Shown piece after piece: positions 36,509-47,335 of a DNA stretch of 64,000 nucleotides (positions within the stretch are counted from its first letter, which is position 1; the number at the start of each line of letters is the position of its first letter). Below the pieces are notes generated by a model. It was given only the letters and a program-made list of their open reading frames with translations, did no database searches and had not been told where the DNA came from. A program made the position numbers and the translations under genes. Origin of the DNA: Candidatus Limnocylindria bacterium (lineage in GTDB: Bacteria > Chloroflexota > Limnocylindria > Limnocylindrales > CSP1-4); contig DATLDP010000065.1 in NCBI GenBank assembly GCA_035525825.1, forward strand, positions 4,885 to 68,884, in the 5' to 3' direction.

Positions 36509-36772
36509 TCAGCCGCGGCGGAGGGTGCTGGCGGCGGCCCACAGCGTCATGAGCGCCCCGATCGAGGCCATGACCCCGAGGAACAGCTCGCCGGCGCCAA
36601 GTGCGGCGATCCCGATCGCGCCGAACAGCCCCGCGAAGACCAGGGCGATCGCGCCCAGCCCGATCCGCTCGACGAGCGGACGTTCCTGGTCCGTCGCGTC
36701 CGAACCGCCGGGCGACAGACCCTCGGCGGCCGGCGCAGCGGACGCGGCGGGCTCGGTGGCGTCGTCCGTCAC
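36509..36772 (-). CDS. Small two-TM membrane protein coupled to pbpA
   Basis: GTG36772 overlaps the pbpA stop (GTGA). The 87-aa product has an acidic/Ala-rich N-terminus, then IGLGAIALVFAGLFGAIGIAALG and LFLGVMASIGALMTLWAAA. Its size and topology recall CrgA-type proteins, but no motif-level match is claimed. Confidence 0.4.
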   Translation of the reverse strand: MTDDATEPAASAAPAAEGLSPGGSDATDQERPLVERIGLGAIALVFAGLFGAIGIAALGAGELFLGVMASIGALMTLWAAASTLRRG

Positions 36773-38343
36773 TGGTTCGCCCAGGTGCGCCAGGCGCGGA
36801 ACATGTCGCCGGCGATCGGCGAGGCCTTGACCGAGCCGCCACCGGAGTTCTCGACCATCACCGCGATCGCGACTTGGGGATCGTCGTACGGCGCGAAGCC
36901 GATGAACCACGAGTGCGGGCGGGTGCTCGGATCGAGCTCGGCGGTGCCTGACTTGCCGGCGACGGCGAGGTTCCGCACCGAGGCCCCGGCGGTGAAGATC
37001 CGGCCAATGTCGCCGCTGACCGCGAGCCGCATCGCCGCGCCGATCTCGTCGGCGACCCCGGACGCGACGACCCGGGACAGCACCTCCGGTGCGATGGTCG
37101 TGGAGCCGCCCTTGCCGGTCGCCTCGATCACCAGGTGCGGGCGCATCAGGTTGCCGTGGTTCGCGACGGTCGCGGCGACGAGCGCCATCTGGAGCGGCGT
37201 GACCAGCGTCTCGCCCTGGCCGTAGGCGGCATTCGCGAGCTCCACGCGATCGGAGAAGCCGCCGCCGGCGGCGCCATCGCCGTTCGTGACCTGCGAGGCC
37301 GCGGTCTGCAGGTCGAACGCGAGCGGCGACCCGAACCCGAGCTTTGCGGCCCAGTCGGCGAGCGCCTGCCCGCCGGTCCGCACGCCCGTTTCCGCGAACC
37401 AGATGTTGCACGAGGCCTCCACCGCCTCGGCGAACGCGAGGGGCGTGGAGCCCGTGCCGGAATGGTGGCCGTCGCGGACGCGGAAGCCATCGATCAGCCA
37501 GCCGGGCTTTTCGGACCCGGGCTGGTCCTCATAGGTCGTGTTCGGCCCGACGGCGCCGCTGCCCAGCGCCGCGATCGCGGTGACGATCTTGAAGACCGAG
37601 CCCGGCACATACCGGCCGAGCGTGGCCCGGGGCAGGAGGGGCTGGCGCTCCGCGGCGCGCAGGCGATCCATCGTCCGGGCGGCGGTCGCGGGGTTGGCGA
37701 CCGCGGACGCGTCGAAGGTCGGGGTCGAGGCGAGCGCCAGGATCTCGCCGTTGCGCGGATCGATCATCACGATGGCGCCGCGGTTGCTCCCGAGGGCATC
37801 CACGGCCGCCTGCTGCAGCTGCAGCGACAGGGTGGATCGGAGCGACTGCGGGTCCGAGGGATCCGCCCGGAACTTCCGGGTGAGCTCCCGGAGGGGGTCG
37901 GCCGAGATGACCCCGCTCAGCTGGGCGTTCCAGGCGTTCTCGAGCCCCGCGGTCCCGAACTGCCGCGACGAGTAGCCGATGACGTGCGAGACCGCATCGG
38001 AGGCATAGACCCGGTACGGCTCGCCGTTGTCGTCGCGCTTGTTCCAGGCGAGGCGCTCGCCGTCGCGATCGGTGATCTCGCCGCGGAGGACGTTCCGTGC
38101 CGCGGCGATGACCGCGGCGTCATCGCCCGAGGTGCTGAGGTTCGCGGACTCGATGACCTGCCAGTAGCCGGCCCCGAGCGCGAGGCTGCCGAACGCGAAG
38201 GCGAGCACGAGCGACACCCGCCCGAGCGCAGCCCCGATCCCGATCCGCCGGCCGGCCCACTCCGGCGAGATCCCGGGTCGCCGGGCGTGGCTCGGGGGGC
38301 CGCCCCCTTCGGACCATGCGCCGCCAACTCGCTCGTGGGTCAT
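36769..38343 (-). CDS. pbpA: Penicillin-binding protein 2 / PbpA-type transpeptidase
   Basis: 524 aa with an N-terminal TM anchor and the motifs SxxK (PGSVFKIVT), SxN (ASCN) and KSG (AGKSGTAE). It shares 1 nt (TGATG) with the rodA stop. Confidence 0.85.
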   Translation of the reverse strand: MTHERVGGAWSEGGGPPSHARRPGISPEWAGRRIGIGAALGRVSLVLAFAFGSLALGAGYWQVIESANLSTSGDDAAVIAAARNVLRGEITDRDGERLAWNKRDDNGEPYRVYASDAVSHVIGYSSRQFGTAGLENAWNAQLSGVISADPLRELTRKFRADPSDPQSLRSTLSLQLQQAAVDALGSNRGAIVMIDPRNGEILALASTPTFDASAVANPATAARTMDRLRAAERQPLLPRATLGRYVPGSVFKIVTAIAALGSGAVGPNTTYEDQPGSEKPGWLIDGFRVRDGHHSGTGSTPLAFAEAVEASCNIWFAETGVRTGGQALADWAAKLGFGSPLAFDLQTAASQVTNGDGAAGGGFSDRVELANAAYGQGETLVTPLQMALVAATVANHGNLMRPHLVIEATGKGGSTTIAPEVLSRVVASGVADEIGAAMRLAVSGDIGRIFTAGASVRNLAVAGKSGTAELDPSTRPHSWFIGFAPYDDPQVAIAVMVENSGGGSVKASPIAGDMFRAWRTWANQ

Positions 38344-39806
38344 CAGGCGGCTCCCCGATCCAGCAGTCGCCGGACGCGGCCCTGCCGGCGCGGCGGCGGC
38401 AGCGGCTCGCGCGTCTGCACCGACAGCGCGATGAGCAGCCCCACGATCACGGAGTTGGCGAGCAGCGAGGAGCCGCCATAGCTGACGAAAGGCAGCGTGA
38501 TCCCGGTCAGCGGGATCAGCTTCAGGTTGCCGGCCGCGATGATGAACGCCTGGACGCCGATCACCAGCGAAAGGCCGGCGGCGAGGATCGCGCGGAACTC
38601 GTCCTGGGCGGCGGAGGCGATCCGCAGGCCCCGGTGGACCAGCACGAGGTAGAGCCCGAGGATGGCCAGGATCCCCACCAGGCCCAGCTCCTCCCCGAGC
38701 GCCGCGAACGGGAAGTCCGTGTGGAGCGCCGGAATCGGCGGCCGGCCGGCGATCGTCGGCAGGCCGCCACCGAGGCCTGTCCCGATCAGCCCGCCGCGGG
38801 CGAAGGCGTGGAGCGCCTGGACGATCTGGTAGCCCGAGCCGGACGGGTCGGCGAACGGATCCAGCCAGATATCGACGCGGGTCCGGACGTGGTCGAACAG
38901 GAAATAGAGGACCGTGGCGCCGGCGACGAACGCGGCGAGCCCGAGGACCACGAAGCTGACCCGCGCCGTCGAGACATACAGCAGGAGCAGGAATACGGCG
39001 AAGAACAGCAGCGCGGCCCCGAGGTCACGCTGCACGATCACGATGCCGAGGGCGATCGTCCACATCGCGACCATGGGCGCGAGGTACGGCAGCGGCGGCA
39101 GCCGGAACGGCCCGATCCGGGTCGATTCCTCGACGAGGAGCCGGCGATTCTCCGAGAGGTAGCCGGCGAGGAACACGACGAGGATGACCTTCAGGAGCTC
39201 CGAGGGCTGGCCGCTGATCGGCCCGATCGAAAGCGTCAGGCGGGCGCCGTTCACGTCCCGGCCGAAGAGGAAGGTCAGCAGCAGCAGCCCGACGCCCATC
39301 GCCGCCCAGGTGTACTTGTAGCGCCGCAGCCAGACGTCGTTCCGGACTGCGACGGCAAGGACCGTGACGATCGCCAGCCCGATGACGAGCCAGACGAGCT
39401 GGGTCTGCGCCAGGCCCCCGAGGTTGCCGGCGAGGTCCTGGGGCAGCCGCTGCATCAGGAGCAGGCCGATCCCGCCGAGGAGCCCGCTGACCGGGAGGAG
39501 GATCTGGTCGGTTCGCCGGCCGGCGAGCACGAACGCGACGTGCGCCGCGAACAGCGCCCCGAGATACACGAGCAGCAGGCCCGAGTCCGCCGGCGACAGC
39601 AGGTCGAAGCCGGCGGCCTCCTCGAGCTGGGCCTCGCGGAAGCGCTGCGTCGCCCCGAGGGAGACGCTGCCCACGTAAAGGGCCACGGCCACGACCCCCA
39701 GCAGCGACAGCTCGCGACCGCGGAAGCGCGGGATGACGCGCAACCGTCGCGGCTCCCGCCCCACGACGCGCAGGCCGCGCGGCGCGGGCGCCACGGTCAT
39801 GGTCAC
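38343..39806 (-). CDS. rodA: FtsW/RodA/SpoVE-family SEDS glycosyltransferase
   Basis: 487 aa, polytopic, with the conserved LQPSELLKV-like (GQPSELLKVILVVFLA) and TDFPFAALGEELG segments. ATG39806 overlaps the fhaB stop (ATGA). Confidence 0.9.
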   Translation of the reverse strand: MTMTVAPAPRGLRVVGREPRRLRVIPRFRGRELSLLGVVAVALYVGSVSLGATQRFREAQLEEAAGFDLLSPADSGLLLVYLGALFAAHVAFVLAGRRTDQILLPVSGLLGGIGLLLMQRLPQDLAGNLGGLAQTQLVWLVIGLAIVTVLAVAVRNDVWLRRYKYTWAAMGVGLLLLTFLFGRDVNGARLTLSIGPISGQPSELLKVILVVFLAGYLSENRRLLVEESTRIGPFRLPPLPYLAPMVAMWTIALGIVIVQRDLGAALLFFAVFLLLLYVSTARVSFVVLGLAAFVAGATVLYFLFDHVRTRVDIWLDPFADPSGSGYQIVQALHAFARGGLIGTGLGGGLPTIAGRPPIPALHTDFPFAALGEELGLVGILAILGLYLVLVHRGLRIASAAQDEFRAILAAGLSLVIGVQAFIIAAGNLKLIPLTGITLPFVSYGGSSLLANSVIVGLLIALSVQTREPLPPPRRQGRVRRLLDRGAA

Positions 39807-40243
39807 GTCGCCCGGGCGCGGTCGAGACGGAGACGGACCTGGCCGATCTGGACCTCGTCACCGAACGCGATCGGCGAGAGCCCGTCCACCTGGCTGCCGT
39901 TCACGAACGTCCCGTTCGTGGATCCAAGATCCTCCACGTACCAGGCCCGGCCGCGGTAGGTCAGCGCCGCGTGCGTCGCCGAGACGAACTCGTCATCGAG
40001 CACGATGGAGTTGTTGACGTCGCGCCCGAGCGACGTGATGGCATCGAGCGCGAACGTGGCGCCGGAAGCCGGCTCGCCCGACGGCGAGGCGATGACGACG
40101 AGCCGCCCGAGCTCCGCGGTCGGCTCCCGCGCGGCCGCCCGGAGATCCCGCACGAGTGCTCGGACGACGAACCACAGGAACCCGTAGAGCATCGCGAGGA
40201 AGAGCAGGCGCAGGACCCAGATCGCGACGACGGCGGCATCCAT
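39803..40243 (-). CDS. fhaB: Membrane-anchored FHA-domain protein (FhaB/FipA-like)
   Basis: 146 aa with an N-terminal TM helix (VVAIWVLRLLFLAMLYGFLWFVV) and a C-terminal FHA domain (LGRDVNNSIVLDDEFVSATHAAL...YVEDLGSTNGTFVNG). Confidence 0.8.
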   Translation of the reverse strand: MDAAVVAIWVLRLLFLAMLYGFLWFVVRALVRDLRAAAREPTAELGRLVVIASPSGEPASGATFALDAITSLGRDVNNSIVLDDEFVSATHAALTYRGRAWYVEDLGSTNGTFVNGSQVDGLSPIAFGDEVQIGQVRLRLDRARAT

Positions 40244-40256
40244 GGGGTGTCCGCGG

Positions 40257-41030
40257 CTACCGGCGCGCGCCGGCCTCGGCGGTCATCGTCACGTCGGCGG
40301 GCTCGATGACGAGGCTGGTCTCGCCGATCTGGATCGTGTCGCCGGCGCCGAGCACGACCTCGGTGATGCGATGGCCGTTGACCCGGGTCCCATTCGTCGA
40401 CCCGAGGTCCGTCAGGACGAGCACCCCATCCCTGGCCATGAGGCGGGCGTGGCGTCGCGACGCCTTGCCGTCGCGAAGCGAAAGCTCGCACTCCGAGGCC
40501 CGCCCGATCCGGATCGGCGCCCCGGTCAGCGGCACGCGACGGGCGGGCAGGCCGGGCTCGCGGACCTCGACGAGCGCCGCCGGGCCGCGCACGACCGGCA
40601 CCTCGAACACGCGCGTCCCGCCGTCGACCTGGTCTCCCGGCGCGACGGGCGCGGGGGCGTCCGGCTCAGGGGAGAACCGCGTTGCGACCTCGACCTCGCC
40701 CGGGCGCAGGTCGGGATCCGGCAGCAGCGTCACCCGCGGCCGGTCGCGGAGGGCGTATCCGTGGTCGCGGGCGAAGCTGAGGGCGCCGGACGCGAGCTCG
40801 CTCGCGAGCTCATCGGCGGGGAGCAGTGCCGCGAGGTCGGTCGGATGGAGCCGGACCTGGAACTGGTCCGGGACGAGTCCTCGGCGGCCGTCGGAGCCGC
40901 GCTCGGCCTCCATCGCGCGCTCGATCCGTCGCTGGACCTGGATCGGCTGCAACCGCGTGCGGAAGAGCCGAGCGCTGGGTCGTTCGACGAGGCGCTCGAA
41001 GAAGCGCTCCACGCGTGACATGGCCCGCAC
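40257..41030 (-). CDS. fhaA: FhaA-like protein (DUF3662 N-terminal domain + C-terminal FHA domain)
   Basis: 257 aa with VERFFERLVERPSARLFRTRLQPIQVQRRIERAM (DUF3662 pattern) and an FHA domain (IGRASECELSLRDGKASRRHARL...LTDLGSTNGTRVNG). It is much shorter than mycobacterial FhaA because it has no long linker. Confidence 0.8.
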   Translation of the reverse strand: MRAMSRVERFFERLVERPSARLFRTRLQPIQVQRRIERAMEAERGSDGRRGLVPDQFQVRLHPTDLAALLPADELASELASGALSFARDHGYALRDRPRVTLLPDPDLRPGEVEVATRFSPEPDAPAPVAPGDQVDGGTRVFEVPVVRGPAALVEVREPGLPARRVPLTGAPIRIGRASECELSLRDGKASRRHARLMARDGVLVLTDLGSTNGTRVNGHRITEVVLGAGDTIQIGETSLVIEPADVTMTAEAGARR

Positions 41031-41043: not shown

Positions 41044-41193
41044 GCAGAGGGTCCCGGTTCGACCGTCCGCCACGGCCATCAGTACCGCTGGCCCTCGACG
41101 GCGGTACCAGCGGCGCAAATGAGCGACGTTGGGCGGCCGGTATGATCTCCACGGATCGTGTCGGAGGCGACGGGATCCGTAGACGGGGAGCCG

Positions 41194-43053
41194 ATGACCG
41201 AGATCCTGACCGAATCCTTCTGCGAACGGTGTGGCACGCGCTACACGTTCGAGCCCGTGGGGGGCCGGCGGAAGCCGTTCAAGAAGATCGGCACGCTCGG
41301 GCGAGGGATCAAGCACTTCGTCGCGGACTCGGAGAAGACGCTCGACGAGGCCTTCGCGGTCGCCCGCTCCGAGCAGGAGCAGCGTTCCACGGCCCACGCC
41401 CTCGAGGCCTTCCACCGGACGTTCAACTTCTGCCTGTCGTGCCGCCAGTACACCTGCTCGGACTGCTGGAACACGGTCGAGGGTCGCTGCCTGACGTGCG
41501 CGCCCACCGCCGAGGCTGCGCCGCCCGCGACGCGGACCGACACCGCGGTCGCGCTGGGCCCGTTCGACCTGTCCCTGTCGCCTGGGTCCATGGCTTCCGG
41601 CGGCAACGGCGTCGACGCGATGGATCTCGAGGCCGTGCGAGCGGAGGCCCGCGCCGCAGCGGCCGCCGCCGAGGCAGAGGCCGAGGCCCGGGCCGTCGCC
41701 GAAGCCGAGACAGAAGCGGCGCGCATCGCCGCCGAAGCGGAGGCAAAAGCCGCGCGCGTCGCCGCGGAAGCGGAGGCAGAAGCTGCGCGGGTGGCGGCGG
41801 AGGCGGAGGCAGCGCGAATCGCCGCGGAAGCCGAGGCCGCGCGAATTGCGGCCGAGGCGGAGCGAGCCCGGCTGCAGGCGGAGCGCGAGGCCGTGCGGAT
41901 CGCCGCGGAGCAGGAGGCGGCGCGACTTGCCGCCGAGGCCGAAGCGGCACGGATTGCCGCGGACCAGGAGCGAGCGCGGCTCGACGCGGAGGCCGAAGCA
42001 GCCCGAATCGCCGCCGAAGAGGAACGCTCCCGGCTGGCTGCCGAGGAATCAGCCCGCGCCGCGGCCGCCGAGGAAGCCCGACGCGCCGCGGAGGCAGCCG
42101 CACGGCTTGCCGCCGAGGCAGAAGCGAGGGCAGCCGCGGTCGCCGCCGCAGAGGCCGAAGCTCGCGCCGCCGCCGAGGAAGAAGCCCGACGGGCCGCCGA
42201 GGCAGCCCGAATCGCGGCCGAGGAGGAGGCTCGCCGCCAGGCCGCAGCCGACGCGGCCCGGATCGCCGCCGAGCAGGAGGCCCGGCGTGCCGCGGAGGCG
42301 GAGGCGGCTCGCGTCGCTGCGCAGGCCGAGGCGGCCCGGAGGCGCGAGGCGGAGGAAGCCCGGCTTGCGGCCGAGGCGGAGGCCCGCGCCGCGGCCCAGG
42401 AAGCCGCGCGCCTCGAGGCGGAGGCAGCCGCCCGGCAGGCCGCGGAAGCCGACGCGGCCCGCATCGCTGCCCAGGAGCAGGCTCGACTCGCGGCGGCTGC
42501 CGAGGCTGCCCGACTTGCCGCCGAGGCCGAATCGGCGCGACTGGCCGCCGAGGAAGCGGCGCGACGCGCTGCCGAGGAGGAAGCTCGCGTCGCCGCGGCC
42601 GCCGAGGCCGAGCGAGCGGCCGCGGAAGCGGAGGCGGAGGCAACCCGGATCGCGACGCAGCAGGCTGCCGATGCAGCGGCCGCGGCCAAGCTGGAGTTCG
42701 AGCCCGGCCTCAACCTCGACGACGAGATCGCGGCCTACGAGCGGAGCGTGTCCGCGGCCCCGGCAGGTCCAGGCGCCGAGCCCATTCCCACCGCGATCGG
42801 CCAGGCCTTGCCGGCGGCCGTGGTCGACACCAGCCTGGCGTGGCCGGAGCCCACGGTGACCGCTGCGGCCATCGAGCCGAGCTGGCCCGAGGCCGCACCG
42901 GGTCGCTCGGTCGGCGCGCACCTGCCGGCTGCCGACCAGCCCGTCGCTCCGCTGGCGGCGCGGGCGTGCCCGTCGTGCGGGTTGACGCTCTCCGCCAGCG
43001 CCCGGTTCTGCCGGCGCTGCGGCACGGCCCAGCAGGTCGACGCGCCGCGCTGA
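41194..43053 (+). CDS. Zinc-ribbon protein with a central Ala/Glu/Arg repeat of about 350 residues and a C-terminal zinc ribbon
   Basis: The N-terminal Cys cluster is FCERCG...FNFCLSCRQYTCSDCWNTVEGRCLTCAP. The centre is nearly pure A/E/R with I/L/V every 8-9 residues. The C-terminus is CPSCGLTLSASARFCRRCG. The start is either ATG41194 (GGGGAG 3 nt upstream) or GTG41158 (TATGAT at 41141-41146 lies 11 nt upstream). Confidence 0.7.
   Translation: MTEILTESFCERCGTRYTFEPVGGRRKPFKKIGTLGRGIKHFVADSEKTLDEAFAVARSEQEQRSTAHALEAFHRTFNFCLSCRQYTCSDCWNTVEGRCLTCAPTAEAAPPATRTDTAVALGPFDLSLSPGSMASGGNGVDAMDLEAVRAEARAAAAAAEAEAEARAVAEAETEAARIAAEAEAKAARVAAEAEAEAARVAAEAEAARIAAEAEAARIAAEAERARLQAEREAVRIAAEQEAARLAAEAEAARIAADQERARLDAEAEAARIAAEEERSRLAAEESARAAAAEEARRAAEAAARLAAEAEARAAAVAAAEAEARAAAEEEARRAAEAARIAAEEEARRQAAADAARIAAEQEARRAAEAEAARVAAQAEAARRREAEEARLAAEAEARAAAQEAARLEAEAAARQAAEADAARIAAQEQARLAAAAEAARLAAEAESARLAAEEAARRAAEEEARVAAAAEAERAAAEAEAEATRIATQQAADAAAAAKLEFEPGLNLDDEIAAYERSVSAAPAGPGAEPIPTAIGQALPAAVVDTSLAWPEPTVTAAAIEPSWPEAAPGRSVGAHLPAADQPVAPLAARACPSCGLTLSASARFCRRCGTAQQVDAPR
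41632..42690 (+). repeat. Coding degenerate tandem repeat (27-nt / 9-aa register, most regular at 41719-42052)
   Basis: Two 33-nt units are followed by about ten 27-nt units (gcg cgN atc/ctg gcc gcN gaa/gag gcN gag gcN). These encode AR[ILV]AAE(A/Q/E)E(A/R). Later units loosen to spacings of 8, 9, 16 and 17 residues. All six frames are open across this region. Confidence 0.8.
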
Positions 43054-43997: not shown

Positions 43998-44240
43998 TCA
44001 GTCCCGGAGCTCCTCGAACAGGCCCGGCTGGAGGTCGGAGGCGCGAACCCGTCGCGGCGGGGCGATCAGCGCCTTGATCTCGCCGCGACGCACGAACCGC
44101 CGGCCGCCGAGCTTGATGCTCTGGACCTTGCCCGCCCGCGCCCAGCCGCCGATGGTGGCCGGTCGGAACCGGACATTCGCCGCCGAGAGGATCTCCGCGG
44201 CCTCCTCGAGGTTGATCCAGTCGCTGGCCGAGGGGGGCAT
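43998..44240 (-). CDS. Small excisionase/MerR-type HTH DNA-binding protein (BldC-like)
   Basis: ATG44240 lies 1 nt after the FmdB stop. The 80-aa product reads INLEEAAEILSAANVRFRPATIGGWARAGKVQSIKLGGRRFVRRGEIKALI, matching the HTH_17/BldC layout. Only the last 80 codons of track ORF 43998-44474 are used. Confidence 0.6.
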   Translation of the reverse strand: MPPSASDWINLEEAAEILSAANVRFRPATIGGWARAGKVQSIKLGGRRFVRRGEIKALIAPPRRVRASDLQPGLFEELRD

Positions 44241-44241
44241 G

Positions 44242-44655
44242 TCAGCCCTCGCTCGCCGTGGCGGACTTGCCGCCCGAACCCGACTCGCTGGCAGAGGCCT
44301 TTGACGACCTGGATCCCGATGAATCCTTGGCCCCGCCGGAATCGTCCTTCGCGCCGCTCCCTGACGGCGCGTCGGTGCCCGGCGACCCGTTCGATTTCGA
44401 TGACCCTTCGCCGGAGCTGTCGCCGTCGCCGGACGAGGCCGCGCTCGATGCCCGGGTCCGGCTGCTGCTCGCACTCGATCGATCCTTCTTCGCCCAGCCC
44501 GAGCCCTTGAAATGGACCGTCGGCGCGACGAACGCCTTCCGCAGCGTGTCCTCGGCGCCGCAGGCCGGGCAGAACCGGGGCGCGGGCGCGTCGATGCCGT
44601 GGATGAACTCGGTTCGGGTCGAGCAGGTCGAGCAGACGTAGTCGTAGATGGGCAA
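44242..44655 (-). CDS. FmdB-family zinc-ribbon protein with Ser/Gly-rich tail
   Basis: TTG44655 is preceded by GAGGA (5-nt spacer). This gives the canonical family start (M)PIYDYVCSTCSTRTEF...RFCPACGAEDTLRKAFVAPTVHFKGSGW, followed by about 85 residues of S/G/D-rich low complexity. Confidence 0.75.
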   Translation of the reverse strand: MPIYDYVCSTCSTRTEFIHGIDAPAPRFCPACGAEDTLRKAFVAPTVHFKGSGWAKKDRSSASSSRTRASSAASSGDGDSSGEGSSKSNGSPGTDAPSGSGAKDDSGGAKDSSGSRSSKASASESGSGGKSATASEG

Positions 44656-44667
44656 GGCGGTCCTCAA

Positions 44668-45429
44668 TCAGCCATGCATGCGCATGCCGCACTTCGGGCA
44701 GTACACCGCGCGCGGATGGACGGCGGGATAGCCGCAGTGCTGGCAGGTGACGCCGGGTCCGCCGGGCATGGCGCCGGGCCGCTCGACCCCGGTCAGGCCG
44801 AGCGCCTCACCGCTCTCGAGGATGCTGCCGAGCAGCCGCTGGAGGAGCCGCGTCGCGATCCGGTCGGTGTCCCCGCGCGCGCCCCGGCCACCCCAGCCGA
44901 CCACCGCACGGACGATCAGGTCGCCGGTGGACTCGTCCCAGTGCGCCGCCACGCCGCCGACGACGGCGGAATAGTCGGGATAGCCGGACGGGTCGACGGT
45001 CCCGTCGAGCAGCGCGCAGGCGAAGGTGTCATAGGCCGGGTCGATCGCGTCCAGGTACTCGAGGACGTAGAGGGCGTGGCGGGTGATCGGCGAGGCGCCG
45101 CCGTGGGCCCGCAGCCATTCGGAGGCCTCCTCGGTCCTGATGATGTACGGCGCGGCGACCGCCAGCGCCGTGACCCGCGGCTCCACGACCTCCACCCCGG
45201 TCATCGCCACGCCCGCGAGCATCTGGGGGAGCGCGGCCAGCAGCTGCGGGCCGCCCTGGAGCCGGACGCCGGTGCTGGTCTTGGCGCCGAAGTTCAGCCG
45301 GAGCTGGTGCTCCTGGGCGACGGCCTCTTCCGGGACCGCGGTCGAGATGGGCTCCGGCGGTGGCTCGGGGGACCCTGCCTTGGACGAAGCCTTCCCCCCG
45401 GGCTTTCGTCGCAGGAATTCGAGCGGCAC
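44668..45429 (-). CDS. Hypothetical protein with C-terminal zinc ribbon
   Basis: GTG45429 is preceded by GGGGAG (6-nt spacer). The 253-aa product has a globular middle (YVLEYLDAIDPAYDTFACALLDG...) and ends with CQHCGYPAVHPRAVYCPKCG. No family recognised. Confidence 0.55.
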   Translation of the reverse strand: MPLEFLRRKPGGKASSKAGSPEPPPEPISTAVPEEAVAQEHQLRLNFGAKTSTGVRLQGGPQLLAALPQMLAGVAMTGVEVVEPRVTALAVAAPYIIRTEEASEWLRAHGGASPITRHALYVLEYLDAIDPAYDTFACALLDGTVDPSGYPDYSAVVGGVAAHWDESTGDLIVRAVVGWGGRGARGDTDRIATRLLQRLLGSILESGEALGLTGVERPGAMPGGPGVTCQHCGYPAVHPRAVYCPKCGMRMHG

Positions 45430-45490
45430 GAGCAGTCTCCCCGAACGTGACCCTGAGAAGGCGCAAATCGTACCAGCGCGACCTTCGTGC

Positions 45491-47335
45491 TCAGGAAGCG
45501 ACGGCGACGATGGCCTCCAACGGCGCGAGCTCCACCGACTCGCCGAGTGGTCCCTCGGGTCGGTCGGGTTCGGTGGAGCACCTGAGGCGCCACGGGCCCG
45601 CCCCACCCGACGCACGCGCCGGGGTTCGGATCACTGCCGCCCGGGTGGCAAAGTTCAGGGCGACGAACACGCTGCCTGGCGGGTGCCCCAGGCCCGAGGA
45701 CGCGGCCGCGCCCGGTCTGCCGGTTGCGCTCGACGCGCCCGCATTCCCCGTGGGATCGCGGACATAGGCCAGGACGTCCGGATCGCGCGAGTCGAGCAGC
45801 TCCTGTGCGCCCTGGTGGAGGGCCGGCGTCTCGCGCCGCAGTCCCAGCAGGGCCCGGTACCACCGAAGGATCGAGGCGGGATCGCTGGATTCGCGGCTGA
45901 CGTTTCGCGTCGCGGCGTCCGGTGGCAGCGGGAGCCAGGGCTTGCCGCTGGTGAAGCCGCCCCCGGCCGCGCGGCTCCAGGGCATCGGACCCCGTGCCTG
46001 GTCACGGTTCCACCACGGAAACAGCCAGCTCGCGCGCCGCGCGGGAGGGTCGAGTGCCTGCCGGTTCGGGATGGCCAGGTTCCGTAGCCCGATCTCCTCG
46101 CCGTAGTAGAGGAAGGGCGTGCCACGCAGCGTCAGGAGCATCGTTGCGGCGACCTTCGCCCGGGCATCGCCGAACCCGTCGGCCGGCGCCTTCGGGCCGG
46201 GTGCGTCGTAGCGGCTCGCATGCCGGGGCTGGTCGTGGTTCGAGAGCACGTTCGCTGGCCAGCGACCCGGTCCGAAGATGCCATCCCGCCGCTCGATCGC
46301 AGTCCGGAAGGCCCCGGCGTTCCACGGCAGCGAGATCATCGACCAGTCGAAGATCAGGTGGCGGGGAGCGACGAAGCCCGCGGCGTCCGCGATCGAGCCA
46401 TCGAACAGCTCCCCGACGGTCATCCGGCCAGGCTTCGCATCGACCAGCGCTCGCAGCTCGTCGATCGCCCCCCGGAGCTCGGGCTGGTCGCGATCGTAGA
46501 GATGGCGCTGCCAGGACCACCGGCCCCGGCGCCCGATCCGACGCGGATTGGAGCGCAGCGACGCCTCCTTGAAGAAGCTGTTGAAGACGTCGAGCCGGAA
46601 GCCGTCGACCCCGCGATCGAGCCACGCCTGGACCACGCCGAGCAGCGCCTCACGCGCCGGTGGGTGACGCCAGTTGAGGTCGGGCTGCTCCGGCAGGAAC
46701 GTGTGGAGGTAGAACTGCTCGCGGCGCTCGTCCCAGGTCCACGCCGAGCCGCCGAAGAACGACCGCCAGTTGTTCGGCGGCCGGCGGCGACCGAGCAGGG
46801 AGCGGCCAGGCGAATCGCGCCAGATATACCAATCGGCATACGGTCCCTGGCGGCTTTCGCGGGAGGCCCGGAACCAGGCGTGCTGGCTGCTGCTGTGGTT
46901 AAGGACGAGATCCAGGATGACCCGGAGGCCGCGCTCGTGAGCGCCCTTGACGAGGCGCTCGAAGTCCGCGAGCGAGCCGTAGCGCCGATCGACGCCGACG
47001 TAGTCCGCGACGTCATAGCCGAAGTCGAAGTCCGGCGACGGATAGATCGGCGAGAGCCAGATCGCGTCGACGCCGAGCGAATCAGGGCTCCCGGCAAGGT
47101 GGTCGAGGCGGTCGATGATGCCGGCCAGGTCCCCGACCCCGTCGCCGTTCGCGTCGGCGAAGCTGCGCGGGTAGATCTGGTAGACGACGCCCGTCTGCCA
47201 CCACGCGTCACCGGGCTGTGGCTGGGGTGGCCCCGCGGCGGCTGGCTGCGATGAATTCGCAAGGTCCGCTGCGGCTGGTGCGGACGCGTCCGCCCGGCCC
47301 GCCGTCGATCGTTGCGAGTGCGGCTCTGGAGGCAC
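45491..47335 (-). CDS. GH13 alpha-glucosidase / oligo-1,6-glucosidase-type enzyme
   Basis: 614 aa with WWQTGVVYQIYPRSFAD(A)NGDGVGDL, DAIWLSPIY, VILDLVLNHSS, GFRLDV and HDQPR, the conserved GH13 regions. GTG47335 is preceded by GGAGGA (7-nt spacer). Confidence 0.85.
   Translation of the reverse strand: MPPEPHSQRSTAGRADASAPAAADLANSSQPAAAGPPQPQPGDAWWQTGVVYQIYPRSFADANGDGVGDLAGIIDRLDHLAGSPDSLGVDAIWLSPIYPSPDFDFGYDVADYVGVDRRYGSLADFERLVKGAHERGLRVILDLVLNHSSSQHAWFRASRESRQGPYADWYIWRDSPGRSLLGRRRPPNNWRSFFGGSAWTWDERREQFYLHTFLPEQPDLNWRHPPAREALLGVVQAWLDRGVDGFRLDVFNSFFKEASLRSNPRRIGRRGRWSWQRHLYDRDQPELRGAIDELRALVDAKPGRMTVGELFDGSIADAAGFVAPRHLIFDWSMISLPWNAGAFRTAIERRDGIFGPGRWPANVLSNHDQPRHASRYDAPGPKAPADGFGDARAKVAATMLLTLRGTPFLYYGEEIGLRNLAIPNRQALDPPARRASWLFPWWNRDQARGPMPWSRAAGGGFTSGKPWLPLPPDAATRNVSRESSDPASILRWYRALLGLRRETPALHQGAQELLDSRDPDVLAYVRDPTGNAGASSATGRPGAAASSGLGHPPGSVFVALNFATRAAVIRTPARASGGAGPWRLRCSTEPDRPEGPLGESVELAPLEAIVAVAS

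Follow-up and report, generated by a model that had tools for sequence, protein, structure and literature searches.

A protein family of Limnocylindria with Cys-rich ends and a variable acidic spacer, encoded opposite fhaA

In a 64,000-nucleotide stretch of DNA from a Candidatus Limnocylindria bacterium (contig DATLDP010000065.1, positions 4,885 to 68,884; hereafter the window), a gene for a protein with Cys clusters at both ends and a long run of Ala, Glu and Arg between them faces fhaA, the first gene of a fhaA-fhaB-rodA-pbpA group. The locus raises the question of what such a protein might be, which of its parts matter, and whether its position next to wall-growth genes hints at its role. 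The protein belongs to an uncharacterised, unnamed family that has so far been seen only in Limnocylindria, a class of uncultured Chloroflexota. In this family the two ends are conserved, and the connection between them is rebuilt from lineage to lineage. We favour, at about even chances, a two-ended cytoplasmic adaptor or tether with metal-binding docking ends and a variable spacer, possibly tied to FhaA. To our knowledge, Limnocylindria are abundant Chloroflexota of soil and freshwater with few or no cultured representatives.

The gene, its family and the conserved ends

A preliminary description of the window, made without database searches, had placed an open reading frame (ORF) at 41158..43053 on the forward strand. 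This ORF is present, and so are all five shadow ORFs listed with it, at exactly the coordinates given for them. G+C climbs to 0.78-0.80 over the repeat. The ORF is a real gene rather than a chance reading frame in DNA of 78% G+C, because 56 of 80 related loci keep its N- and C-terminal modules in a common reading frame. These are the best 80 related loci, all from metagenome-assembled genomes (MAGs), on which locus counts rest unless stated otherwise; related genomic loci carry L-numbers and database proteins of the family P-numbers. The start at GTG 41158 that had been assumed lies 12 codons upstream, in the same frame, of an ATG at 41194 that we prefer. The ATG is almost certainly the true start, since every homologue begins with MTEILTESFCERCG at the equivalent Met, and an invariant GGGGAG is found 3 nt before it. 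This Shine-Dalgarno-like sequence (41185..41190, +) is conserved in 10 of 10 aligned relatives. With the Met start matched by homologues, the coding sequence runs from 41194 to 43053 (+) and comprises 619 codons and a stop. The window holds one copy of the gene.

A search with the N-terminal 151 residues retrieved 273 proteins, with E-values down to 1e-68. Those with a named source come mostly from Candidatus Limnocylindrales or Chloroflexota. A few carry other labels, which are probably wrong, and all hits with a credible name belong to Limnocylindria. When a profile of the N-terminal domain was run against 1.84 billion proteins, it matched 797 cluster representatives (478 at E <= 1e-30, best 3e-60), and a peptide-pattern scan with tblastn confirmation located relatives of the family in 453 GTDB species genomes. 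The best 80 loci are mostly labelled Limnocylindria/-ales or Chloroflexota as well; the otherwise labelled minority is syntenic with Limnocylindrales loci and 75-85% identical to them. Where the ORF that opens with the N-terminal domain runs in frame to the C-terminal ribbon, as it does in the 56 loci, the protein has 351-756 residues. The window protein carries all four traits by which the family can be recognised, namely the N-terminal domain, the ribbon, the AAYE and Trp-Pro motifs, and the synteny. An exact look-up of the window protein and of FhaA in the protein collection returned neither, the FhaA query having begun with the literal Val of its GTG start.

Some entries need comment. Six MAG loci (L002, L005, L008, L021, L037 and L051) are titled Binatia, Patescibacteria, Dormiibacterota, Deferrimicrobiaceae, Polarisedimenticolia or Sulfomarinibacteraceae. 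They are syntenic with Limnocylindrales loci and 64-85% identical to them, and the MAGs are probably mislabelled bins. Two further loci, L062 and L065, come from the same MAG (MFD05513.bin.2.203), each with an fha block and the gene for the zinc-ribbon protein, which reflects either bin redundancy or a duplicated locus. Many proteins of the 273-protein set are partial, as their contigs stop inside the repeat. Many database proteins (P0010, P0057, P0104, P0109 and others) are 120-260 residues long with Arg/Gly/Pro/Ser-rich tails, in some cases on contigs of more than 400 kb; the tails appear to be frameshifted readings of the repeat. The family is thus systematically mis-annotated in databases where assemblies fail in the repeat, because entries are frameshifted there or stop at contig ends.

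The N-terminal domain spans residues 1-104 (41194..41505, +) and represents an unnamed family. The Cys clusters described earlier can be read directly from the translation: a first CxxC knuckle, CERC (C10/C13; 41221..41232, +), is followed at a distance by the core CLSC-x4-CSDC-x7-CLTC (C80-C102; 41431..41499, +). In an alignment of 82 full-length sequences, the stretch from M1 to F19 as well as C10, C13, H74, C80, C83, C88, C91, C99 and C102 are invariant, and the key positions are likewise invariant in an 18-sequence alignment that includes the window protein. The consensus opening of the domain reads MxEILTESFCERCGTRYTFE. AlphaFold2 with the 82 sequences models the domain at a block-mean predicted local distance difference test (pLDDT) score of ~55-91, with a beta-knuckle (strands 7-9 and 16-18), helices at residues 30-44 and 50-76, and Cys-rich strands at 77-80 and 85-88. 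The domain is followed by a connector of residues 105-141 (41506..41616, +), which is not conserved and is predicted to be unstructured (pLDDT <50 at residues 109-145).

Residues 25-43 (41266..41322, +; RRKPFKKIGTLGRGIKHFV) form a basic amphipathic segment with the top hydrophobic moment of the domain, 0.67. The charge of residues 21-46 is +6 in the window protein and +4.9 in the family average; with a family average of +3.7 for the C-terminal ribbon, both ends are basic. A membrane-targeting helix was considered for this segment, which has low confidence in a mediocre model built from 18 sequences (pLDDT 63.7). With the deeper alignment of 82 sequences, residues 30-44 become a confident helix (block-mean pLDDT ~80-84) that is probably part of the domain. 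Membrane targeting by residues 25-43 is therefore a minor possibility.

Database searches gave no name to this module. Scans of the full protein and of each end against Pfam and NCBIfam found no match over the N-terminal domain, its profile retrieved nothing from the PDB sequences at E <= 10, and Foldseek against the PDB returned nothing below E = 1, either with the N-terminal model (pLDDT 63.7) or with the full-length model (mean pLDDT 72.6; 82 full-length sequences). The earlier failure to name a characterised family is in line with these results. The family, nearly universal in its class, is thus unnamed in databases, and the unrecognised eight-Cys domain is a candidate for a new domain entry.

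Eight invariant Cys residues, with a C-x2-C...C-x2-C-A-P ending, may also suggest an iron-sulfur cluster, in which case the protein could sense redox state or oxygen, and its output would run through the linker and the ribbon. Fer2_3 matches in 5 of 18 members (best E = 0.00089) point in the same direction, but they stay below the threshold. The Cys spacing fits cross-brace zinc fingers better, and as many as 15 of 18 members match FYVE_2, ZZ and Prok-RING_2 below threshold. The invariant His74 is typical of zinc sites, as are the modelled beta-hairpin knuckles. We regard the cluster as very unlikely, and take the domain for a probable zinc module in what follows.

At the other end, the protein closes with a zinc ribbon (42967..43023, +; CPSCGLTLSASARFCRRCG; C592, C595, C606 and C609). 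The ribbon had been described as CPSCG-x11-CRRCG, but actually reads CPSCG-x9-CRRCG (CxxC-x10-CxxC). The four Cys residues and the surrounding CGL.LSA.ARFCRRCG are invariant in the 82 sequences. Pfam Zn_Ribbon_1 (PF13240, cut-off 25) scores 25.8 bits when a 137-residue C-terminal fragment is scanned, and 22.4 bits when the whole protein is. NCBIfam returned only YdhT, at 19 bits against a cut-off of 300 bits; this identity was rejected as a low-complexity artefact. The proposal of metal-binding ends gains support from the invariant Cys8 site at the N-terminus and Cys4 site at the C-terminus, from which we infer metal binding.

Between spacer and ribbon lie two kinds of short conserved elements. 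The first, FEPGLNLDDEIAAYE at residues 502-516 (42697..42741, +), fits the regular expression [FLMV]xPGx[SN]L[DE][DE]xIAAYE, which is found in 51 of 57 complete proteins, with two more degenerate copies; one subclade is devoid of it. The second are Trp-Pro motifs that precede the ribbon and whose W and P columns are nearly invariant in the whole family. In the window protein they read AWPEP (42838-42852) and SWPEA (42880-42894) and lie at residues 549-567, within a Pro/Ala-rich tail (42742..42966, +; pLDDT <50) that keeps its motifs among close relatives. A third tail motif, EPIPTAIGQ (42778-42804, +), contains a conserved Thr, as does PTWxIVAP in other clades. A phospho-ligand of FhaA or FhaB would need a phosphorylated Thr to which the FHA domain binds, and such motifs might provide one.

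A spacer that changes between lineages

The spacer comprises residues 142-498, counted from Met 41194, or 357 residues (41617..42687, +) by sliding-window composition, in good agreement with the roughly 350 residues estimated before. It consists of Ala (0.50), Glu (0.21) and Arg (0.14), with a net charge of -30; bulky hydrophobics make up ~8%, and Pro and Gly are excluded. Its first part is an in-register tandem array (41722..42057, +) of R[ILV]AAEAEAA-type nonamers. In Tandem Repeats Finder, a 33-nt period comes out with 4.5 copies and a 27-nt period with 9.0. Laid out by hand on the R[ILV] anchor, the array consists of 33-nt units at 41722 and 41755 and ten 27-nt units at 41788-42057, without a single indel, in keeping with the strict register that had been noticed. 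The 27-nt units share 64% DNA identity, and 245 of their 443 pairwise differences (55%) fall at third codon positions. The array is diverged and constrained at the protein level, because the differences between units concentrate at third codon positions; the earlier reading as an old repeat that is maintained at the protein level stands.

Other features of the first description hold only in part. Ile, Leu or Val had been placed at every eighth or ninth residue. The spacing is 9-11 residues only in the first third; in the middle it widens to ~17, and toward the end it is mixed. The spacer had further been described as a helix or coiled coil of about 50 nm. A helix is predicted, but a coiled-coil signal is absent. 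Fourier analysis of the spacer found no heptad or hendecad signal in the hydrophobic or the charge pattern: for ILVMF, the power at periods of 3.5, 3.6 and 3.67 residues is 0.12, 0.02 and 0.00, with peaks of 0.4-0.7 at ~8.5-9.3. A canonical coiled coil is unlikely, because this periodicity is missing. In contrast, pairs of opposite charges at i+3 and i+4 number 93, against 46 +/- 5.7 in 1000 shuffles (z ~8). The doubling of such pairs, together with the missing power at 3.5, 3.6 and 3.67, makes a salt-bridged helix, similar to A(EAAAK)n or a single alpha-helix, more likely than a canonical coiled coil.

In the full-length AlphaFold2 model, the spacer forms two helices, residues 145-308 at a block-mean pLDDT of ~79-95 and residues 316-498 at ~50-90, separated by residues 308-315 with pLDDT <50. 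For the AAYE motif the model gives a short helix of low pLDDT (510-519), the tail is disordered, and the ribbon reaches ~84. At 0.15 nm per residue, 357 residues correspond to ~54 nm, and the two modelled segments to ~25 and ~27 nm. The rod may thus consist of two segments of ~25 nm instead of one of ~54 nm, because AlphaFold2 breaks the helix at 308-315. A register for an antiparallel hairpin was tried and rejected: hydrophobic positions mirrored by hand around residue 312 do not align convincingly. No transmembrane segment was found, the maximum Kyte-Doolittle score over a 19-residue window being 1.12, and the protein appears to be soluble and cytoplasmic.

Comparison across the family changes the view of the spacer. 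The linker before the AAYE motif (linker 1) ranges from 68 to 486 residues and the one after it (linker 2) from 64 to 407. With 402 residues, linker 1 of the window protein is the third longest of 118. An Ala/Glu/Arg linker with a basic fraction of ~0.13-0.14 is present only in the window protein and in L001, L003 and L016. A wider clade, with N-terminal domains ~80% or more identical, has linkers that are rich in Ala and Glu and poor in Arg, and most linkers of the family are acidic and rich in Pro, Glu and Ala, with a Pro fraction of 0.12-0.24. The middle region is acidic in every member, with a mean charge of -53 (window, -42). Repeats differ as well. Linker 1 of L001 (8611-8997) contains an 18-nt unit in 21.5 copies (EEARLA), and linker 2 of L053 (8585-9199) a 39-nt unit in 15.5 copies with 93% identity (PEPEPVAAELVAE). 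In a four-way alignment, close relatives are separated by indels of whole units.

The Ala/Glu/Arg repeat is therefore a lineage-specific rebuild of the spacer and not the conserved core of the protein, because only the three closest relatives share it, and they do so with different repeat periods. The helix can thus no longer be taken for the defining feature. A helix of 50 nm cannot be the mechanism that the family conserves, since the linkers of most members are rich in Pro, Glu and Ala. Linker length, composition and repeat unit change freely between lineages. In the window protein, tandem duplication has expanded linker 1 into a long predicted helix, and selection has kept it helical. The family provides a case study of spacers, in which the same end modules are joined by an Ala/Glu/Arg rod, an Ala/Glu helix or a Pro/Glu chain, with independent expansions of 18-, 27-, 33- or 39-nt repeat units.

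Such variability could also mean that the Ala/Glu/Arg stretch is a neutral low-complexity expansion, caused by slippage in GC-rich DNA, or an assembly artefact, and that only the ends matter. Several linkers do carry recent near-perfect repeats, that of L053 among them (93%), and many assemblies break or frameshift inside the gene. The excess of third-position differences between the units speaks against this view, and neither the exclusion of Pro and Gly nor the salt-bridge spacing would be expected from neutral GC-driven drift. Moreover, three independent assemblies, one of them a 281-kb contig, contain Ala/Glu/Arg linkers of 399-486 residues in frame with the conserved C-terminus, and the acidity of the linker is common to all members. 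Taken together, a neutral or artefactual origin seems quite improbable.

A self-assembling coiled-coil filament of the cytoskeleton, similar to Scy, FilP or DivIVA and organising polar or septal growth, is about equally improbable. The long helix, a mid-break in the AlphaFold2 model that would allow an antiparallel hairpin, the adjoining wall-growth genes, and a nonamer that on a helical wheel puts Ile and Ala on two opposite faces are what such a filament might look like. A filament of this type is hard to reconcile with the lack of Fourier power at 3.5 or 3.67 and a content of bulky hydrophobics of ~8%. The repeat period varies among the nearest relatives (9, 6 and ~17 residues), the Pro-rich linkers of most members cannot form coiled coils, and no DivIVA or other filament-domain match was obtained. 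We therefore retain the salt-bridged spacer as the more plausible description of the window protein.

The fhaA neighbourhood and a possible role

The divergent neighbour, fhaA (40257..41030, -; FhaA_N and FHA domains by Pfam), is followed by fhaB (FHA), rodA, pbpA and a small gene for a protein with two transmembrane helices, and then by genes for MoxR, a DUF58 protein and a transglutaminase. Downstream and convergent are a BrkB/YihY-like gene and a gene for an FmdB-type zinc-ribbon protein. The preliminary description had proposed to check whether the arrangement is conserved. Of the 78 related loci in which this could be assessed, 75 do have a divergent fhaA, with a median distance of 172 nt, and BrkB is present in 58 of 63.

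In the window, fhaA is separated from ATG 41194 by 163 bp that contain blocks conserved in ten related genomes. A TATGAT hexamer (41141..41146, +) lies inside an invariant GCCGGTAT.ATC block; in the alignment of ten related intergenic regions it reads TATGAT in eight and TATCAT in two, and we infer a role as -10 box. A simple sigma-70 scan of the region between fhaA and the zinc-ribbon gene found no complete promoter. The same region contains two conserved boxes with GTACC (41082-41086 and 41102-41108), ~20 nt apart. Most relatives have CGGTACC at these boxes; in the window, the first box is CAGTACC. The boxes may be a regulator site common to both divergent genes.

It is this arrangement, head-to-head with fhaA across a conserved control region of 160-170 bp in nearly all members, that suggests a possible cooperation with FhaA. 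In mycobacteria, FhaA organises envelope synthesis and polar elongation (PMC11898655). A search of the available paper library found nothing that links FhaA with a zinc ribbon, and what it returned on Limnocylindria together with cell division was a taxonomy paper.

Several observations weigh against a tether that works with FhaA. Synteny extends over more than 12 genes, in the order transglutaminase-DUF58-MoxR-small membrane protein-pbpA-rodA-fhaB-fhaA, the gene in question, and BrkB-helix-turn-helix (HTH)-FmdB, and it may merely result from slow change of gene order within one class. Because the whole block is syntenic across the class, adjacency to fhaA is weak evidence of a functional link. 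Furthermore, the fhaA-pbpA block is missing in L032, L059 and L061 (of the 78) and in the metagenomic loci L082, L083 and L087, with the zinc-ribbon gene intact. Five proteins without the AAYE motif (L055, L086, L088, L089 and L090) are still encoded beside fhaA. Finally, the full-length AlphaFold2 model has a predicted template modelling score (pTM) of 0.30. The earlier hint at a wall-growth scaffold thus keeps its head-to-head arrangement with fhaA, but the arrangement is part of a larger syntenic block, and the gene persists where fhaA-pbpA is gone from the locus.

The deletions deserve a closer look. In the deletion loci, the zinc-ribbon gene directly faces the small membrane protein gene and MoxR. 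The block is cleanly deleted in a subclade (L032, L059, L061, L082 and L087), and GCA_040960765.1 is one of the genomes with the local deletion. L083 (4576-4827) has another junction, at which FhaA residues 1-54 continue in frame into the last helix of the small membrane protein. The block was deleted at least twice independently, because the L083 junction differs. An 83-residue ORF of L083 that Pfam labels FhaA_N had suggested selective retention of the N-terminal domain of FhaA; it is really the gene for the protein with two transmembrane helices, fused at the deletion junction. All six deletion loci encode proteins without the AAYE helix. A strict co-loss of the motif and the fha block was rejected, since the five motif-less proteins named above retain their fha neighbours. 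The pattern of losses is suggestive but nested, and it rests on about two deletion events.

Persistence of the gene without the fha block would also fit a protein for which the position next to fhaA is incidental. The protein could bind nucleic acids and act on the nucleoid, RNA or transcription, with basic ends that bind (about +5 at residues 21-46 and +4 in the ribbon) and an acidic linker that mimics or repels nucleic acid. Local Foldseek matches to RadD, an SBP DNA-binding domain, RecR and ribosomal ribbons point this way, but none of them is significant, and the searches revealed neither a helix-turn-helix nor another DNA-binding fold. Small zinc ribbons bind proteins equally often, and the Trp-Pro and AAYE motifs look like protein-docking peptides. 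We consider nucleic-acid binding unlikely, though less so than a filament.

The adaptor or tether that we favour might operate as follows. Both ends would serve for docking and would bind metal, most likely two zinc ions in the N-terminal domain and one in the C-terminal ribbon. Partners would be bound by linear motifs, namely the FxPGxSLDDxIAAYE helix and the Trp-Pro motifs. The centre would be a pure physical spacer that sets reach and stiffness. In the window protein it would be a stiff rod, an alpha-helix braced by Glu-Arg salt bridges within the helix, either one of ~54 nm or two of ~25 nm, and in most relatives an extended Pro/Glu-rich chain would do the same job. That the adaptor or tether may cooperate with the FhaA/FhaB-RodA-PbpA wall-growth module is a weaker part of the proposal, which draws on synteny and position.

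A bolder version can be formulated. The protein could be a lineage-specific component of FhaA/FhaB-RodA-PbpA elongation, a tether or ruler with zinc-capped ends. Rebuilding of the spacer, as a stiff Ala/Glu/Arg single helix or an extended Pro/Glu chain, would tune its reach, and its N-terminal module would be a previously unrecognised split cross-brace finger with a 66-residue helical insert. We consider this version doubtful, about on a par with nucleic-acid binding. If true, it would offer, in an uncultured bacterial class, a natural experiment on how the physical properties of a spacer determine the geometry of a complex for wall synthesis. In either version, the family offers a concrete candidate for a growth or division factor specific to the lineage, because its gene adjoins the only recognisable wall-growth regulators at the locus. 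If the link to FhaA is incidental, an ordinary unnamed zinc-ribbon protein with a low-complexity linker remains.

The neighbourhood offers further observations. The small gene with two transmembrane helices (~36512-36720, -) lies between pbpA and MoxR and has the core RPLVERIGLGAIALV...GELFLGVMASIGALMTLW. In 63 related loci it comes directly after pbpA, and in the three deletion loci of the set it lies next to the zinc-ribbon gene. The operon is probably fhaA-fhaB-rodA-pbpA plus this small gene, because of its position after pbpA in the 63 loci. In Actinobacteria, fhaA-fhaB-rodA-pbpA are accompanied by a PP2C phosphatase and the PknA and PknB kinases. The fha operon of the window (36769-41030, -) is devoid of them, and the window ORFs scanned revealed no gene for a kinase or a PP2C phosphatase. 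On the other side, the FmdB-type zinc-ribbon protein (44242-44667, -) has a Ser/Gly-rich tail. Just downstream of its gene toward BrkB lies an ORF of ~80 residues (43998-44667 region, -), the counterparts of which in related loci have weak HTH_17 matches. A conserved protein of ~250 residues without Pfam match is encoded at ~44668-45615.

Comparison with known systems

The C-terminal CPSCG-x9-CRRCG of the window protein resembles Zn_Ribbon_1 (PF13240) and DZR (PF12773), which are generic bacterial ribbons. The match spans only ~20 of 619 residues, and the family name is uninformative on function. Generic zinc ribbons are usually N-terminal in membrane proteins, not C-terminal in a soluble one.

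The N-terminal domain is reminiscent of cross-brace fingers such as FYVE, ZZ, B-box and prokaryotic RING (PF02318, PF16366, PF14445), with which C80-C102 share a similar spacing, C-x2-C-x4-C-x2-C-x7-C-x2-C. FYVE_2 and CEBP_ZZ match below threshold in 15 of 18 family members that were scanned separately. The best scores against their cut-offs are 19.9 against 22.4 for Prok-RING_2 (in a homologue), 12.9 against 27.2 for FYVE_2 and 11.4 against 29.8 for CEBP_ZZ. In Foldseek, the best E-value is 1.3, and a local match to the CARP2 FYVE domain covers 28 residues at a root-mean-square deviation of 1.5 (E = 3.5). Neither a curated threshold for any of these fingers nor Foldseek significance was reached. 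In contrast to the known fingers, the first CxxC of the window protein lies 66 residues upstream, past the basic helix and a 27-residue helix, and we know of no described cross-brace finger with such an insert. The domain also lacks a phosphoinositide- or E2-binding signature. As a lead only, the Cys core may be compared to the last three knuckles of a FYVE/RING-type finger with a displaced first CxxC. A zinc-binding anti-sigma factor was considered and dismissed. The motif of such proteins is H-x3-C-x2-C, with a sigma-factor gene adjacent, whereas the spacing here is H74-x5-C80-x2-C83, and there is no sigma-factor gene among the neighbours.

DivIVA/Wag31, Scy and FilP of Actinobacteria are similar in being long helical proteins tied to the wall-growth machinery, and they organise growth in relatives that also use FhaA, RodA and PbpA. 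The window protein differs from them in the absence of heptad, hendecad or 51-mer periodicity and in having zinc modules at both ends, and its helix is absent from most members of the family. Pfam detected no DivIVA domain in it at E <= 1. Neither a TolA-like nor a DivIVA-like family, both named as examples in the preliminary description, was matched in Pfam.

With respect to the spacer alone, TolA and TonB offer a parallel. TolA domain II is a long Ala/Lys/Glu helix that spans the periplasm, and TonB has a Pro-rich spacer. The window protein shares with TolA a long, Ala-rich, charged helix as a spacer, and the spacers of the family are either TolA-like (helical) or TonB-like (Pro/Glu-rich). 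However, the window protein has no transmembrane anchor, no TolA_III and no TonB_C, uses Arg and not Lys, and is net acidic; neither a hydrophobic segment nor a TolA match in Pfam assigns it to TolA. Its Cys-rich ends point to the cytoplasm, in contrast to the periplasm-spanning TolA.

The spacer of the window protein can also be compared to charged single alpha-helix (SAH, ER/K) domains, with which it shares dense Glu-Arg pairs at i+3 and i+4, the absence of a hydrophobic seam, and a predicted helix. It differs from classical SAH domains, which are ~70-80% charged, in being only ~37% charged, with 50% Ala and an Ile, Leu or Val every 9-17 residues. In composition, it is close to the engineered A(EAAAK)n rigid linkers.

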